Below, in pieces: positions 3,988 through 11,213 of a DNA stretch of 40,385 nt (its first letter is position 1; each line of letters starts with the position of its first letter). The stretch is from Vezdaea acicularis. Lineage: Eukaryota. A program made the position numbers and the translations under genes. The notes under the pieces are model-generated. The model saw only the letters and a program-made list of their open reading frames with translations, was not told the DNA's origin and did not search any database. Location of the stretch: NCBI GenBank assembly GCA_026025075.1, contig JAPEUI010000031.1, forward strand, positions 124,001 through 164,385. Direction: 5' to 3'.

Positions 3988-5065
3988 TCAAATTCCGAAG
4001 CCGCCGTAGTTCGAGCCGCGGTGGTTGGAGTGTTGGTAGAGGCTGCTCGCATATTCCGACTGCTGCGTGTCTTGATAGATAGTGGTGCGGCGATCCTCTT
4101 CCGGTAGTAGCTCCTTGACCTCCCAGTTGTGCTGCTTGGTCCCGACGCTGAACTCGAGATCTTCCTTCGTGATCGAGTCCCAGTACTTATAAATCATCAT
4201 GACGGCGAGCAGGTTGCACATGGTGGCGAAGAAGAGGCCGTCGAGGTAGTGCTGGACTTGATCGCAGATCGTCTGGCTGAAGACGTACAGGATCACCTGG
4301 CCGACGACGAAGAAGAAGACGCCGAAGAGGATGTCTCCGAGTGGCCACCGGTCTTGTAGCGTGTTCACCACGAGAAGCACCTGGAGGAGGACGTAGATGA
4401 ATAGGAAGATGCCGTTGATCAGGTACAGGACGACGAAGAGGCCGATTGTGTTGGTGGGACCCAGCGAGCCGACGCTCTTGAACGTCATGATTGAGACCGC
4501 CCCACATATGAGGAACATGAAGAGGGAGGCGCCTCGGAGAAGCCACACCGACATTCTCGTCCCATCCTCATACAGCTGGAACCCCACGAACCCGTTGACA
4601 AAGAGGCAAGTCACCAGCGCGGATGTGAGTCCGTTCTGTACCGCAGCGAAGTATGGATAGGCACCCGTGCCGGGAGGAATTACGCCAGAGTCCAGGATGA
4701 GCGACCAAACGGTCAGAACCATGTAGATATAGAAGAATGTCGTGATCTCCTTCCGACCTAAATATAGCGCATGGACTTTTAGCGAAACCGACTTGGTACC
4801 TCCGAGACAAGACACGAAAACACTCACCGACGGCCGTAAACTTCGATCGCACATGGATGACCATGATGATGGTCATCAGCAGTGCGACAATGTGCATGAA
4901 GCTCGCCGCTCCTTGGAAGATGATCGTGTTGGCCAGCTCGATGCTTCGCGCATAGCATTCGGGCTGGATACCTGTCGACCCAATGATGGGAGAAGGCGGG
5001 CCGACGAGAGAGCAAAGGGGGATCGCTGTCTTGCGACATATCGATCCGAAATCCCCAAATCCCAT
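3988..5065 (-). CDS. CHS7: Chitin synthase export chaperone Chs7, 335 aa, multi-pass membrane protein. Exons 5065-4828, 4757-3988
   Basis: Motifs MGFGDFGSIC, CYARSIELANTIIF, HVRSKFTAVG|RKEI (junction made by GTGAGT..TAG intron 4827-4758), NGFVGFQLYEDGT and YKYWDSITKEDLEFSVG are hallmarks of Chs7. Confidence 0.96.
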
Positions 5066-7140
5066 CTGTGCGATGGATGACTATAGAATGTTGAGAGATT
5101 GAATGGTGTGAAAGCGGATGTAATAATGGTAATGAATGTCGAAGCTGTCGTGAAAGGCTGTTTGACTGTTGAAGACTCTAGACAGAACACGAACCCCAGA
5201 GTTGAGACACGAGAGCGGCGCGACGGCCAACAGGACCAGCGGTGATGCCTTCTACCGCAACGAGCGAAAACTCTGGTGCACCGGGAAGAGGATGATGATG
5301 GCTTCCCTGGTTGGCAGTCAGGAGAGGTTGGAGGACGAAGATGGCGAGAAGCGACGACAGGGAAAGTCACCGGAGGCCTTTCCCCTTCGCTTCGTCGCCA
5401 AACAAAAGGCGGCGTTGCCAGCGTTGGGTGGTGGTGGGCCTTCCCTGAGGCTTGGCATTCGGTTGCCCGCGAAACGAGAAACGAGAGAGCCCAAGACAGC
5501 GAGGAAGAGGCACGTGAAGGTTAGGGCAAGAGACCGCCCTCGCTTAGATCACATGCTCGTGTCCTTTCCCAACGACCCTAATGCCAGGAACACCCCGCGA
5601 ACCCCACCCCAGACTCAACCTATCATCTCCTACTGGTCAATTCCCCGCGCTCGGTCAACCCTCAGGCTTTGGCCGCCCTTTCGACATCGACCTACAAGAA
5701 GGACACAATGTTCAGGATGCAATCCTCAAAGAGCTCAACGCTTGAACCGCTCTTCGTGAGGGCATTGTGCTCTTCCCAGCGATCCGGTCATGCCATCACT
5801 CGACTCTACGAAACTACGCACACCAGCAGGAGCGGATCCGGGCTCGATGGAGATGGGCCCGAAATTGCCCGTCGAGGGGGTCGTCGTCCACCATCGATCC
5901 GTTGCCGTGCTAAACACAGCATCAGATCGATCTCTTTCCACCCAACCCTGACGCAACCGAACTGATGGACTGCGATATGCACGGTGACCCCCACAGACAA
6001 AACGCCGACTGTGACGGTTCATGAGCATTCAGGAGTTATCTCCGTCGCCCAGTGGGAAAGCAGAAAAGTGCTTGCGAGGAAGTCGGTCACGGCACATGCA
6101 GAGATGCCCATTTCAGAAAGTCGATGACGGTACATGCAGTAGCCATTCTTCCTTCGTTTCGCCCTATTGTGCCGCTGCTGGCCTCGGTCGAACGGTAGAA
6201 ACGGGATAACCGGGCTGGCCATCGCACATGGTCACCCTGTCGGCCACGCTGCCTCTTTCGCGCCTGTGGATTTTCTTAGTGGCGGGCCATCGTCCCCTCC
6301 CTCACCCTCTCATCTGTCTTTCTGCCGAACTTAATTTTTTTTTCTCTGTCAACGCCCCCCCCCGCCAAACTCCAACCTCCTCCGGCCTTCCGCCCTCCGC
6401 ACAGACGCATTTTTTTCACACTACGTTCACAAGTCTCCACGATAGATCGCGATCGGTTTGACGACGCATCCTTCGTCCCAGGATGATGCCGACGGTTCTG
6501 GCTCCATCCGGCCTAGCCTTGACCCTGAAGAAATCTAATCGGTTTCTCGGAAAATTCACATCTCCACTCCGCGTCCTCTGTCCATGGCTGCCCGTCCCTT
6601 TCGCCGAATCCTATTGAACCCTTCCTGCCAAAATAGCGCATCGCTGCACCCGGTTTCCTCACCGTCTTCCCCCCGGAAATCTCGATCGAAGGAGCCGCGT
6701 CTGCCTTTGCTGACTCCCCGATTGGCCCTGCGCTCCGTCGCGATGGCTCGCGATGGCTCGCGCCTCTTTCCCTTCGTCACATTCGAGAGACCATCGAAGA
6801 CGGTGAGATGGTAAGACCACGCCAATTGCTCCCGCCATTCCTTCAAAGTCTCTGACAGGAACCAGTAGCGTTATGCCGCATCCATCTGCCGCGTGCCGGC
6901 GGGAGTCAGAGCGCGCATGTCCCGGTTCCATCTCTGTTGACCGAGGACACTTTGGAGCAAGAGCGGGCGAGGAAGACTACCTGTCGTTGCGCGTTTTCCA
7001 ACCTCTGATCTGATCACGATAGTCGTCGAGCGGCCTTTTCCCTCTTCAACCTTCTGCTGGGCATGGGAATCGGATGCTTGTCAACCCCTCATCCAGGAAG
7101 AGCCCCGTAGTTTAAAAGTCCCAACCTTCTTTGTCTTCTC

Positions 7141-7147
7141 TATATAG
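7141..7147 (+). promoter_or_regulatory. Candidate TATA element for the microprotein gene
   Basis: TATATAG in a CT-rich context (with TTTAAAA at 7111), about 100 nt upstream of the 5'UTR intron donor. Confidence 0.4.
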
Positions 7148-7245
7148 CTCTACTGTATCGTCTTCAGTCGCCGCGACATCTCCGCTCATATCAAGCTTAG
7201 CCGGTCTGGACCGCTTCGTGCTGTAACGTTATTCGAGCTCCCCTT

Positions 7246-7354
7246 GTAAGTACATACACACCCGCTGAGGTCACTGACTATCCACTTCGTTGTCCACCCA
7301 TCATCCTACGTACTCCAGATACTTCATACTCTTTAAAAAGCTAATCCGCCATAG
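7246..7354 (+). other. Predicted 5'UTR intron of the microprotein gene
   Basis: Consensus donor GTAAGT at 7246, branch GCTAAT at 7340-7345, acceptor TAG at 7352-7354 (alternative CAG at 7368-7370). It ends 80 nt before the ATG at 7435. Confidence 0.7.
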
Positions 7355-7434
7355 ATCCTCTCTTGTACAGCATCTGATTTAATTTACTTGGCTACGACCT
7401 TCCAAACGTCGTATCAACAGCATTAGCGGTCACG

Positions 7435-7593
7435 ATGTGCCAATACTATAAGAACTACTACATCTATACAAACTGTTCAGACCCGGCCGCTCATTTCTTC
7501 CGAACGTCGATCGATGGCACAAGAGATCCGAGGTGTCCTCGCGGACCTCATGAGAGATACATCGTCGTTCAAGGAAAGTGTCCACAGTGTTAA
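7435..7593 (+). CDS. 52-aa Cys/His microprotein of unknown function: MCQYYKNYYIYTNCSDPAAHFFRTSIDGTRDPRCPRGPHERYIVVQGKCPQC
   Basis: ATG in good context (ACG-ATG), TAA at 7591-7593, upstream intron and TATA. It has 5 Cys and 2 His and ends in CxxC. From memory only, it resembles small uncharacterised ascomycete proteins with KNYYIY..C.DP.AHF and C..GPHERYIV..G.CP.C. Confidence 0.8.
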   Translation: MCQYYKNYYIYTNCSDPAAHFFRTSIDGTRDPRCPRGPHERYIVVQGKCPQC

Positions 7594-9612
7594 CAGTGCG
7601 GGTGTGGCTGCTCCGACCATCAGCGGAACACTGGCCAGAAGTCGACGGAGGATGTGAAGGAACGTCAGTAGTCGCTACCACGAATCAACGATCTCCCACC
7701 ATCAAGCGATCACACTAGCAACGGAAGGACTTATTGTGTCTGAACCTCAAACTTCCCTCTCCACGATTTCGCGATGAACCGGTCGCCCGGCATTTATCGG
7801 TGTCGTCTGATGCTTGTCTCACGGAGTCCCTTGATTCCTCCGAAGCGCCGCTTTTCGCGTGGCTGCACGGGCCTTCGATCTCCACTTTCTTCAATACCAA
7901 CCATGTCCAGCATTATTTTCCCCGGATAATTGATAATCACCATACTTCGAGCCCTTTTCTCTTTTACGACATCTTCTCGTATGGCGCGAAGCATTCTCTG
8001 ATCACGTTTGCGTAAGAACTGCTATTGAAAGAACTGGGCGGATATACCATAGAGCGGCTTTTATTAGATGGCCTTGCTTGGGAGATTTTGGGGGGGGTGT
8101 CGTTGGCGCTTTGCAACTTTGATACACTACATCGCATTGGTGGCACATTTCTTGTACTGTCCCGCACTGTCCATACCCTTTTTTCTTTAGAACGGAGGCA
8201 ACCGGCTGTCCAGGCGTTTCGCAAAAGTATCTCTGGGAAGGATTATCAACACTACATGCCTGTACCATGCGAGTCCTCTCTTCGGCTAATGTATTAAAGT
8301 TTGAGTCCTGGGTCGCATCAAAGCGTTGACGTGGCGGAAATACCGGCGGAGCAGGTTTTGGGTACATGTGAGGTGTGAAAGACAAAAAAATCGATGTGAT
8401 CTATCATATCGAGCTCTCTCGCCTTCCTCCCAACGTTCCCGGCAGATCGGCTGTTGTCCAGCGACGGAGATTAGGGTTTGGCACAGGAACAACCCTGCCG
8501 CCGTGCCGTTTCGATATATGCAACGAAAAACTTACACCTCCATCATCGTGTCATCAGAAGCCAACTCCCACCCTCCCTTTTCTCTCATCCCCCTCCCCTT
8601 TCCCCCCCACTCTGCACGCACAACAGCACGGGCAGCAGTCAGGATCAAGATATCCCACGAGATCGGAAACGATCTCATCCCTTGCCCCACAGCGGGCACC
8701 CCTGTTAGCGAACGGAATCCCTGTACCGACACGCGCTTGGCAAAAAACAAAAAGAGGCGCCCACAACGGTGCTCCAGATGCCTGATGTGCAAACTGCATC
8801 AATCTTTACCGTGTTCTGCCGATGCCGTTTTGGCTTTTGCTTCCCCCCCCCCCTTTTCGAAATCCGCCCCCCACTCGCCCCGCCCGTTCGGGACGCGTGC
8901 GTCACGCAGCTCAACCAACTGAGATTCAATCGAGACGGATGTCGCGACCTGCGGAGCTGAACGCGCGAGACAGGGAGGGAGGAAGACGGAGGGAATGGGG
9001 CGCGATGATCTCATGATCCCATTCCTCCTCCTATTCCAGCCGCCTGCGTTGTGCATGTTCTAGACCTTCCACGGAAAAGATAGAAGAGTGCTTGATTCAC
9101 TTTTTTCTAGTAAGAAGGGGAGACACAACGTCTTTGATGTTGTTCCTGCGCTTTCCCTCCCCCCCCCCACGTTTAAGGATTTTCTTTGGCGCTTGCGGGA
9201 GGGGTGGTGGGGCGGGCTTTCGAGAATGTTGGTGGAGTGTTCGGTGGACTGGTTTCCGTGCTGCGCGGCCCCGATTGGAATACTGAGCAGCGGTCCCGGG
9301 AAACCCTAGGTGCGGGAGCTACGATGGAGAGGGCCGATGCGGGCCGCGCTTCGTGGGGCGAGGGAGGTATCGGGATATTGCTGAATGGTTGGTGGGATAT
9401 GTAATTATAGGTTTAGTCTCCACTACCAAAGTCACCTACAGTAGCTTCCGCCGACCACCATGCCCCACTCGAACGATGCCAGGAATACAAAGGAGAGGGC
9501 TTTATCATCCATCAACCCTGTGCCCTAAACCTCTCCATGCATGACCCCAACAACCAGAAAACAAACGCCCTCCATTATTTCCCCACCGTTACATAGCCCT
9601 TTTCTCCGCCGT

Positions 9613-11213
9613 CTAAGCATCATGAATAAGCCTATGCACGGCCGGAACCGCGCTTGGAGGCACACTTCCATATTCTGTGATGACCATCTTGATGTACTCC
9701 GCCGGCGTAAGATCATACATGAGATTCAGCAGGTGCAGCCCCTTGACGCCCCTCCACGCCCCCAGCTCATCTCCAGCCTCCCGCACGACCAGCTCTTCCG
9801 GCGGCGCGATCTCGTTCCTGGCGATACTGTCCGCTGGCACTTCATCCGTAAACTTGATGCCTTCGCAGCACACGATGACGGGAACGCCGGCATCGTAGGC
9901 GCTCATGGCCACCTGCGCGGTGCCTACGCGCGAGTACAGCGCCCCGTCAAACATCATGGCGTGTGCGCCTAGGAAGACTTTTGTGGCGGACCTCATGGCG
10001 GAGGTCAACCCGGTGGTCAGGTAGTATTGCACTTCTATGCCATGGCTCGCGAGGGCGCGCTTGAGGTTCTTGCCCTCGAAGAGCGGGCGCGAGTCGACGA
10101 CAATCACCCTAAATGTTTTCCCGGACGCGGCGAGATCATCATAGGCTTTGATCATGGTCTGTTCCACGATGCTGCTTTTGGCGTAGGTGAGCACCACGTC
10201 ACCGCCGACTATCTGGGAGGCGGCGCTGGTGGCGATGACCTGGTCGGCGACGGTTAGGCGCTCACGGATGAAGTTGTCGATCCACATGCAGAGCTCGGTA
10301 GTGGCGCGGTTGTCGGGGGTGTTGATGTGGGTTTTGGAGATGGCGCGCTTGAGAAGGCGCATTGCGTTGGACATGGAGATGGAGAAGGGACGGCATGTCT
10401 TGAGAAATTTAATTTGGGGTGAGAAGTACGTTTGGCCGAGATGAAGGGACAGGGCTGTGCCAGGGGGTGTGGTGTAGGAAGCGATGACCTAGGGATATGA
10501 TTAGTAATGTGGAGGTAGACTTCAAGGGGTAAGAGTAAAAGAGGCCTTACGCTCTTGAATGCTAAGAGCATCGCAACGCAGCGAGCACTGCTCCCACATA
10601 TTACGTAGTGGCTTAGTTGTAGGCCTAAAGCAAGAATGCGCGGGTGGATGTCTTTTCCGGCCGTTGTAATGCTGCCCCTTTTACCTTGCCCTGGGTCCTC
10701 ATACAGATGGCTGAGCAGCTCGACATGTTTATCTTCTTCTGGAGGTTTGGTAAGCTCGTGTGAATGTGATGTAGTCCCTCGTATAGGTAGCTGAGACTGG
10801 TCGGCGCCCTTCGGCCCAAGTTGCTTGCCATGCTTCCCAGATCCTGGCGTTGGAAGGGCCTGGCCCTTTTGTGCTACTGCTTTTGCATTTTGTGGCTTTC
10901 CTGCCTCTTGTTTGGAGTTTGTTCCGTTCTGCTGTGGAGGTGGGGCTACTCGACTCGCTGCGCGCTTTGCTTGCTTTTCAGCTTGCTTCTTCTTTTTCAG
11001 CTCTGCACCAGAGATTTTCTCTTCCTTTGTTGGGGCCGGTGGTGGTTGAGGCTTCCCAATTTGTGTAGACTTTGAATCTGCTTTGGGGGGAGGTGTTTGT
11101 TCCAGCGCTGTCGTTGAGGGCTCGGCAGTGGCTGTTATGTCGAATGGAATTGTTTTGGGGACCATAGAAGCTCTTCGACTACCACTAGCGGTAGTAGTAT
11201 TCACTGGTGCCAT
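9613..11213 (-). CDS. GCD2: Translation initiation factor eIF2B delta subunit, about 512 aa. Exons 11213-10551, 10488-9613
   Basis: Motifs IHPRILALGL, VICGSSARCVAML, AFKS|VIASYTTP (intron 10550-10489, GTAAGG..ACTAAT..TAG), VVDSRPLFEG, FLGAHA, YSRVGTA and NLMYDLTP..YIKMVITEYG match IF-2B family delta. The start codon was chosen as the first ATG in good context. Confidence 0.93.

Follow-up and report, generated by a model that had tools for sequence, protein, structure and literature searches.

Does the apparently empty interval between the Chs7 gene and an IF-2B family gene of the ascomycete Vezdaea acicularis hold a protein-coding gene of its own? The interval lies in a window of 40,385 nucleotides, the whole stretch of DNA analysed here (assembly GCA_026025075.1, contig JAPEUI010000031.1, positions 124,001 to 164,385 of the forward strand), and all positions below count from its first nucleotide. 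An earlier reading made from the letters of the DNA only (the sequence-only reading) had proposed in this interval a gene for a 52-amino-acid (aa) Cys/His microprotein, with TATA-like elements and an intron in its 5' untranslated region (5'UTR). The open reading frame (ORF) runs on the + strand from an ATG at 7435, with A at position -3, to a TAA at 7591-7593, and its translation is identical to the sequence quoted in that reading. We consider it likely that the picture holds as a whole, i.e. that this is a conserved stand-alone gene with a 5'UTR intron, encoding a 52-residue intracellular protein with a metal-held fold, from an uncharacterised family of Pezizomycotina (leotiomyceta).

The size of the ORF is unremarkable alone, as 60 ATG-initiated ORFs of at least 30 aa overlap positions 4000 to 11000. 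Homologues were found as follows. In a single-sequence protein search all 11 candidates matched the 52-aa protein, with 65-75% identity, 100% query coverage and E values of 2e-21 to 4e-17. Of 587 candidates from a profile search, 119 clusters reached E ≤ 0.01; when 1.84 billion representatives (50% identity) were searched exhaustively by profile, 108 reached E ≤ 1e-3, 92 of them at E ≤ 1e-10. This homology indicates that the ORF is more than a chance one. The similar uncharacterised small ascomycete proteins to which the sequence-only reading alluded thus exist as 119 clusters and 108 representatives; the homologues at 65-75% identity retain the Cys/His residues, and they match over the full length of the ORF. 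This is a real, strongly conserved small gene, which a length cut-off on ORFs would conceal. One entry of the profile search, a bacterial subtilase/PKD protein of 1624 aa (P0181), was rejected as a spurious low-complexity match. When the whole window was searched with tblastn (E < 0.04), nine of nine family members aligned to 7435-7590 and nowhere else, so the gene is single-copy in the window.

The named members of the family belong to the Sordariomycetes and Leotiomycetes, together with Phylliscum, a Lichinomycete by taxonomy look-up. Colletotrichum, Fusarium, Pyricularia, Verticillium, Xylaria, Sordariales and others we take to be the Sordariomycetes among them, and Tricladium, Cadophora, Sclerotinia, Oidiodendron and others are presumably the Leotiomycetes. 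An entry filed under 'Thermomyces stellatus' belongs to Microascus, a Sordariomycete, according to the same kind of look-up. The named proteins closest to the Chs7 of the window (79-81% identical) come from lichen-forming Lecanoromycetes and allied classes, namely from Toensbergia, Pycnora, Chaenotheca and Schaereria. The window seems to represent a sparsely sampled lineage of Pezizomycotina, and with it a further lineage for the microprotein family. Since the family occurs in several classes and in the lineage of the window, it spans, as judged from these matches, much of leotiomyceta.

All source names of family members are 'hypothetical' or 'uncharacterized', and the family is already in public databases as 'hypothetical protein', with neither a Pfam model nor a solved structure. 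The 52-aa protein of the window itself was not in the protein collection searched, where its best match was 75% identical; the Chs7 ORF of the window was present there at 100% (P0185, 288 aa). The window gene is a new, apparently unannotated member of the family.

Among 184 gathered family proteins, 146 carry the motif C-x11-C-x5-H-x10-18-C-x4-H-x9-C-x2-C, and in 139 of these 146 the motif spans exactly 51 residues. The window protein has the form M-C-x11-C-x5-H-x13-C-x4-H-x9-C-x2-C and ends at C52. Its C2, C14, H20, C34, H39, C49 and C52, which the sequence-only reading had picked out as possible zinc ligands, are all invariant across 51 clean family members, as are M1, P38, E40, R41 and I43, and conservation is even along residues 1 to 52. 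The 38 entries lacking the motif are mostly truncated pieces, or proteins that follow the family sequence for part of their length before the reading frame departs from it; the others include fused variants, the bacterial false positive and one decayed copy. The decayed copy (P0115, Leptodontidium sp., partial, 49 aa) has Ile for M1 and Tyr for C14, H20, H39, C49 and C52, so that five of the seven ligands were lost at once. The changes are of the G:C-to-A:T type that repeat-induced point mutation would leave in a gene duplicate.

Where does the conserved protein begin and end? In all but one of the 146 motif carriers Met immediately precedes the first Cys, the exception being a fragment that begins at the Cys. 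As annotated, 71/146 start at this Met and 123/146 end at most five residues after the last Cys. Tails of more than five residues past the last Cys occur in 23 carriers (more than eight in 21 of them), and ten have no tail at all. Clean proteins of 52-60 aa account for 58 of the 146. Annotated N-terminal extensions of at least 20 aa (n = 64) were compared with one another, and only 5 of 2016 pairs were alike at E ≤ 1e-3, each of them from closely related species. Within these pairs identity was 59-73% in the extension and 83-100% in the core; for the two Sclerotinia species the values were 67% and 100%. As the extensions are mutually unrelated and diverge faster than the core, the constraint begins at the Met. 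The alignments show the ORF, its start and its stop to be conserved across fungal classes. About half of the database gene models for the family look mis-annotated, with spurious extensions: a start at the conserved Met is annotated in only 71/146. Gene models ought to run from the conserved 'MC' to just past the last Cys.

We modelled the protein with AlphaFold2. With an alignment of 138 more diverse sequences the predicted local distance difference test score (pLDDT) was 92.7 and the predicted template-modelling (TM) score 0.71, all five models reaching a pLDDT of at least 88.6. A small three-stranded beta-sheet is confidently predicted, with strands at residues 5-11, 23-27 and 39-45. Foldseek gave 19 matches in PDB at E ≤ 10 and 42 in BFVD, none at E ≤ 1e-3 in either (best E in PDB 3.0, TM score 0.25-0.36), the sensitivity of such a fold search being limited for a query of 52 residues. 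No Pfam family matched the window protein at E ≤ 10, and a sequence profile search of PDB with the family gave no match at E ≤ 10. In the ESM Atlas only the cluster of the family itself (score 0.96-0.98) came up, along with two unnamed ascomycete clusters (0.83-0.85). The predicted fold is thus one without an evident solved relative. The ligand pattern is new, and a small Cys/His metal-binding domain is a known kind of thing; the protein looks like a new zinc-finger-like mini-fold.

The Cys and His residues are arranged as three close pairs (C14-x5-H20, C34-x4-H39 and C49-x2-C52) and a lone C2. In a reducing compartment, conserved Cys/His usually signals metal. The absence of a signal peptide noted in the sequence-only reading was borne out by a simple hydropathy test (not SignalP), in which the highest 9-residue Kyte-Doolittle mean at the N-terminus was 0.5. 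With no signal-peptide core the protein should remain in a reducing compartment. The seven Cys/His probably hold metal ions, and the metal is most likely Zn2+, which would tie the sheet to its long loops.

We prefer, though not securely, a division of the ligands into two sites. Site one would be C14/H20/C49/C52. Site two would be C2/C34/H39 with a fourth ligand from a bridging thiolate, the alpha-amine of Cys2 after removal of the Met, water or a partner. Four longer variants (P0166, P0176, P0184 and P0175) are without C2 and C34 and keep C14, H20, C49 and C52; P0176 and P0184 are also without H39. When canonical and variant forms are aligned together, C14, H20, C49 and C52 are the sole invariant columns. 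Among the couplings between columns, which were no stronger than those of permuted controls, 3-32, 1-38, 17-51 and 22/23-47 agree with this split.

The protein was compared with known metal-binding folds. Like zinc ribbon or rubredoxin-like domains, for example those of small ribosomal proteins, it has about 50 residues, is mostly beta in the model, carries a C-terminal C-P-x-C(-G) knuckle and has its Cys/His ligands in the loops where the strands end; small ribosomal proteins are also the top, though weak, fold matches of the model. Unlike them it has a single CxxC knuckle, its other pairs being C-x5-H and C-x4-H beside the lone Cys2, and seven ligands in place of four. A classical zinc ribbon or rubredoxin-like fold was rejected on the single CxxC and the lack of any PDB fold match at E ≤ 1e-3. 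In Gal4-type Zn2Cys6 clusters, known from the same group of organisms, bridging thiolates let fewer than eight ligands hold two zinc ions. The microprotein differs from these in having five Cys and two His at other spacings, in being predicted as beta-rich rather than helical, and in standing alone, where the Zn2Cys6 cluster forms the DNA-binding head of a transcription factor; Pfam scans of the window protein and the 51 members found no sequence similarity to the Zn2Cys6 cluster. Two further candidates were rejected. A metallothionein does not fit five Cys in 52 residues with no CxC or CC and with eight aromatics (6 Tyr, 2 Phe), and a twin Cx9C (CHCH) protein of the intermembrane space does not fit Cys spacings of 11, 19, 14 and 2 and an all-beta model.

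The gene could be real and its Cys/His serve something other than zinc, i.e. an iron-sulfur centre, Cu(I), thiol redox chemistry or disulfides, for instance in a metal or redox sensor. Seven ligands do not divide evenly between two tetrahedral zinc sites, Cu(I) would be well served by a Cys2His site with three ligands, and the C-terminal C-P-x-C(-G) is a knuckle of the rubredoxin type. The commonest weak Pfam match among the 51 members is also to a bacterial heavy-metal domain, PF19335 (HMBD), with 4 of the 51 and a best E of 0.095. The stretch C34-P-x-G-P-H39-E ... P-G-x-C49-P-x-C52-G of the microprotein resembles the HMBD motif, whose consensus we take to be C-P-M-H-P-E ... P-G-x-C-P-x-C-G. 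However, these matches are not significant and the window protein has none even at E ≤ 10, so membership in PF19335 was rejected. The microprotein differs from HMBD further in that its predicted continuous strand 39-45 would set H39 and C49 at opposite ends, and in that its variants retain C49/C52 with C14/H20 and not with C34/H39. Moreover, neither a signal peptide nor twin Cx9C spacing points to an oxidising compartment, and mixed Cys/His in small cytosolic domains is most often zinc-binding. We regard a non-zinc role as unlikely.

A bolder form of the metal reading is doubtful. Here the family would form a class of metal-binding mini-domain not recognised before, with a novel fold, two adjacent metal sites and a functional free N-terminal Cys. 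The strict 'MC' start (145/146) would then mean that the free N-terminal Cys is itself functional, either as a metal ligand or as a redox- or oxygen-sensitive switch controlling the stability of the protein. The N-terminal-Cys degron substrates of plants and animals are an analogy for such a switch.

Upstream of the ORF lie the putative signals of a small transcription unit (Table 1). The two TATA-like elements are located where the sequence-only reading had placed them and may act in a promoter; in filamentous fungi CT tracts occur near transcription starts. Gaps of at least 350 nt from one ATG to the next occur 10 times among 1331 in the window, which puts the leader in the top 0.75%. The intron proposed in that reading has the donor GTAAGT (7246-7251), the branch sequence GCTAAT (7340-7345) and the acceptor TAG (7352-7354). 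The strict pattern GTAAGT..GCTAAY..YAG was found twice in the window on both strands, compared with 0.16 expected from 100 dinucleotide shuffles, and a looser pattern 10 times compared with 4.7 ± 2.2; per 360-nt leader on one strand the expectation is 0.0007 (strict) to 0.02 (loose), and all of these figures flatter the site, as the pattern was chosen after the site was seen. The architecture of the signals is like that of the homology-verified intron of the Chs7 gene (4758-4827 on the - strand, 70 nt, GTGAGT..GCTAAA..TAG, frame kept in tblastn with a Chs7 homologue). A 5'UTR intron at this place is plausible. Transcription probably begins after the TATATAG element, and the mRNA probably loses the intron from its 5'UTR.

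Table 1. Features of the microprotein gene, in positions of the window.
Feature	Position	Strand	Basis
Coding sequence of the 52-aa Cys/His microprotein, stop included	7435..7593	+	ORF list, protein homology, tblastn
TTTAAAA, first TATA-like element	7111..7117	+	read in sequence
Pyrimidine-rich (CT) tract between both TATA-like elements	7121..7140	+	read in sequence
TATATAG, second TATA-like element	7141..7147	+	read in sequence
ATG-free leader, 358 nt	7077..7434	+	last upstream ATG 7074-7076
Putative 5'UTR intron, 109 nt	7246..7354	+	sequence signals

Several results weigh against a conserved gene for a metal-held fold. The GC content at third codon positions (GC3) is 0.52 in the ORF and 0.76-0.77 in the exons of Chs7 and the IF-2B family gene, and by codon-usage log-odds 10% of intergenic windows score at least as high as the ORF; this score is uninformative, Chs7 itself coming out near zero. 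With 51 close sequences (alignment A2) the AlphaFold2 model fell to a pLDDT of 51.5, so that the good model depends on the depth of the alignment. The ESM Atlas recognition value was 1854, under the 2300 that 91% of known families reach. When mutual information and mean-field direct coupling analysis were applied to the family to place the ligands, the top coupling was 3.52 and the maximum in 30 column permutations 3.61, and 11 of 17 top pairs fell into ladders, for which the controls averaged 5.1 and reached 9 at most; the couplings are a weak hint. Couplings 7-41 and 4-45 would pair strand 1 with strand 3, and they favour other ligand splits than the preferred one. The rows of alignment A3 were picked by motif and the invariance in it is circular; the unselected evidence is that of alignments A1 and A2. 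A complex prediction with two copies and four Zn, in which the family alignment was not used, scored 0.12, the mark being 0.32, and speaks neither for nor against dimerisation.

The low GC3 of the ORF, well under that of the neighbouring genes, would also suit a chance ORF or a decaying, unexpressed remnant in this genome of a family that is real elsewhere. The ORF is missing from the protein collection although the Chs7 ORF of the same organism is there, and the family does have decayed copies such as P0115. Yet the ORF keeps all seven ligands, opens with the Met and stops immediately after C52, the identity to members from other classes reaches 75%, and the ATG-free leader and splice signals are intact; an end exactly at the last Cys is shared with the ten tail-less members. 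A remnant is therefore very improbable.

A precursor of a secreted or processed peptide, i.e. the core of a ribosomally synthesized and post-translationally modified peptide (RiPP), a pheromone or a small Cys-rich effector, would likewise be small, Cys-containing and fungal-specific. But the chain has no hydrophobic leader, no repeated core units and no dibasic processing sites, its conservation is even over all 52 residues, and the confident model shows a compact fold along its entire length; nor do tailoring enzymes flank the gene, whose neighbours encode Chs7 and an IF-2B family member. A secreted small Cys-rich protein or RiPP precursor was rejected on the peak 9-residue hydropathy of 0.5 and the lack of repeats visible in the sequence, and we give the precursor explanation hardly any credence. 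We find it equally hard to credit that the ORF belongs as one exon to a larger gene, or that it regulates a downstream gene as an upstream ORF. Database annotations make many homologues longer, up to 393 aa, and a few variants stand at the C-terminus of longer proteins, but an in-frame stop at 7375-7377, downstream of the putative acceptor, means that the coding region cannot extend upstream, the leader is ATG-free, the annotated extensions are mutually unrelated while 58 homologues are clean proteins of 52-60 aa, and there is no conserved + strand ORF downstream, the sole sizeable one lying on the opposite strand with a GC3 of 0.41.

What might the protein do? It has a net charge of +3, many conserved aromatic residues and no catalytic-looking ones. 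It probably serves as a structural module built around zinc, and its target would be a partner protein or a nucleic acid in either the cytosol or the nucleus. The variant domain stands at the C-terminus of proteins of 230-393 aa, or inside a protein of 366 aa. P0166 and P0176 have a conserved 'RADNFRQHCQRLHP' stretch in common, and P0175 carries a Clr5 domain (PF14420, E 1.7e-5). In P0166, P0176 and P0184 Pfam found no C2H2 domain at E ≤ 0.01, their C2H2-like look being by eye only. These four proteins may be true fusions, which could hint at the partners of the domain; that it occurs C-terminally in longer proteins is a weak hint of a nuclear or chromatin setting.

The sequence-only reading had known of no described function, and this stands, as there is no Pfam family, no sequence relative in PDB and nothing in the literature searched. 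We found no publication on the microprotein family, judging from titles and abstracts. Fungal microproteins as a class have been reviewed (PMC11413187), and in that review small proteins are described as systematically missed in fungal annotation, with very few from filamentous fungi having a known role; its text does not mention the microprotein family, nor do the words 'zinc' and 'cysteine' occur in it. Like Nrs1 of budding yeast, the microprotein has fewer than 100 aa and a small gene of its own of the kind missed by length cut-offs. Unlike Nrs1, to which it has no sequence relation, its family spans filamentous ascomycete classes and is not yeast-specific. The family is a clean case of an overlooked small protein, conserved since the leotiomyceta classes diverged and with an invariant ligand set. 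The 52-residue protein is well suited to nuclear magnetic resonance, metal analysis and chemical synthesis, and since some fungi with an orthologue are genetically tractable, its function can be tested directly.

The gene on one side of the interval, at 3991-5065 on the - strand, encodes Chs7 (PF12271, E 4.5e-93), its start codon at 5065 being placed by tblastn with a Chs7 homologue. The gene on the other side, also on the - strand and with its stop at 9613, belongs to the IF-2B family (PF01008, E 5.6e-55). The sequence-only reading had named the neighbours chs7 and GCD2; the former is right and the latter is consistent with our result, but PF01008 resolves the family level only. The distance from the Chs7 ATG to the IF-2B stop agrees with the roughly 4.5 kb given there. 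That so large a non-coding space points to a heavily regulated gene, as that reading proposed, is a conjecture. An Rfam scan of 5000-9700 had no match at E ≤ 1, so the interval and the intron are not explained by a known RNA gene.

A protein of a Chaenotheca gracillima metagenome-assembled genome (P0189), publicly named 'porphobilinogen deaminase', matches the window Chs7 at 77% identity and contains the Pfam domain of Chs7; the public name looks wrong. The Sclerotinia sclerotiorum homologue of the microprotein bears the tag sscle_02g017150. The adjoining tag, sscle_02g017140, is SsCFEM13, a 184-aa CFEM protein, according to a table in PMC13030711. If the tags follow chromosome order, this is an indirect hint that synteny with chs7 has not been kept in S. 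sclerotiorum.

Convergent to the microprotein gene is a 121-aa ORF with several Cys (8002-8367, - strand). An intron-like GTRAGT..CTRAY..YAG lies upstream of it (8451-8535, - strand), and Pfam gave only a sub-threshold double-zinc-ribbon match (E 0.37). This ORF is probably non-coding, because its GC3 of 0.41 is lower than the intergenic level. In the gene-free flanks there are long pyrimidine and poly-C runs at 6300-6420, 8570-8610, 8830-8880 and 9150-9175. An exact tandem duplication of tcgcgatggc (two copies) occupies 6743-6762, and a near-repeat extends it to 6766.

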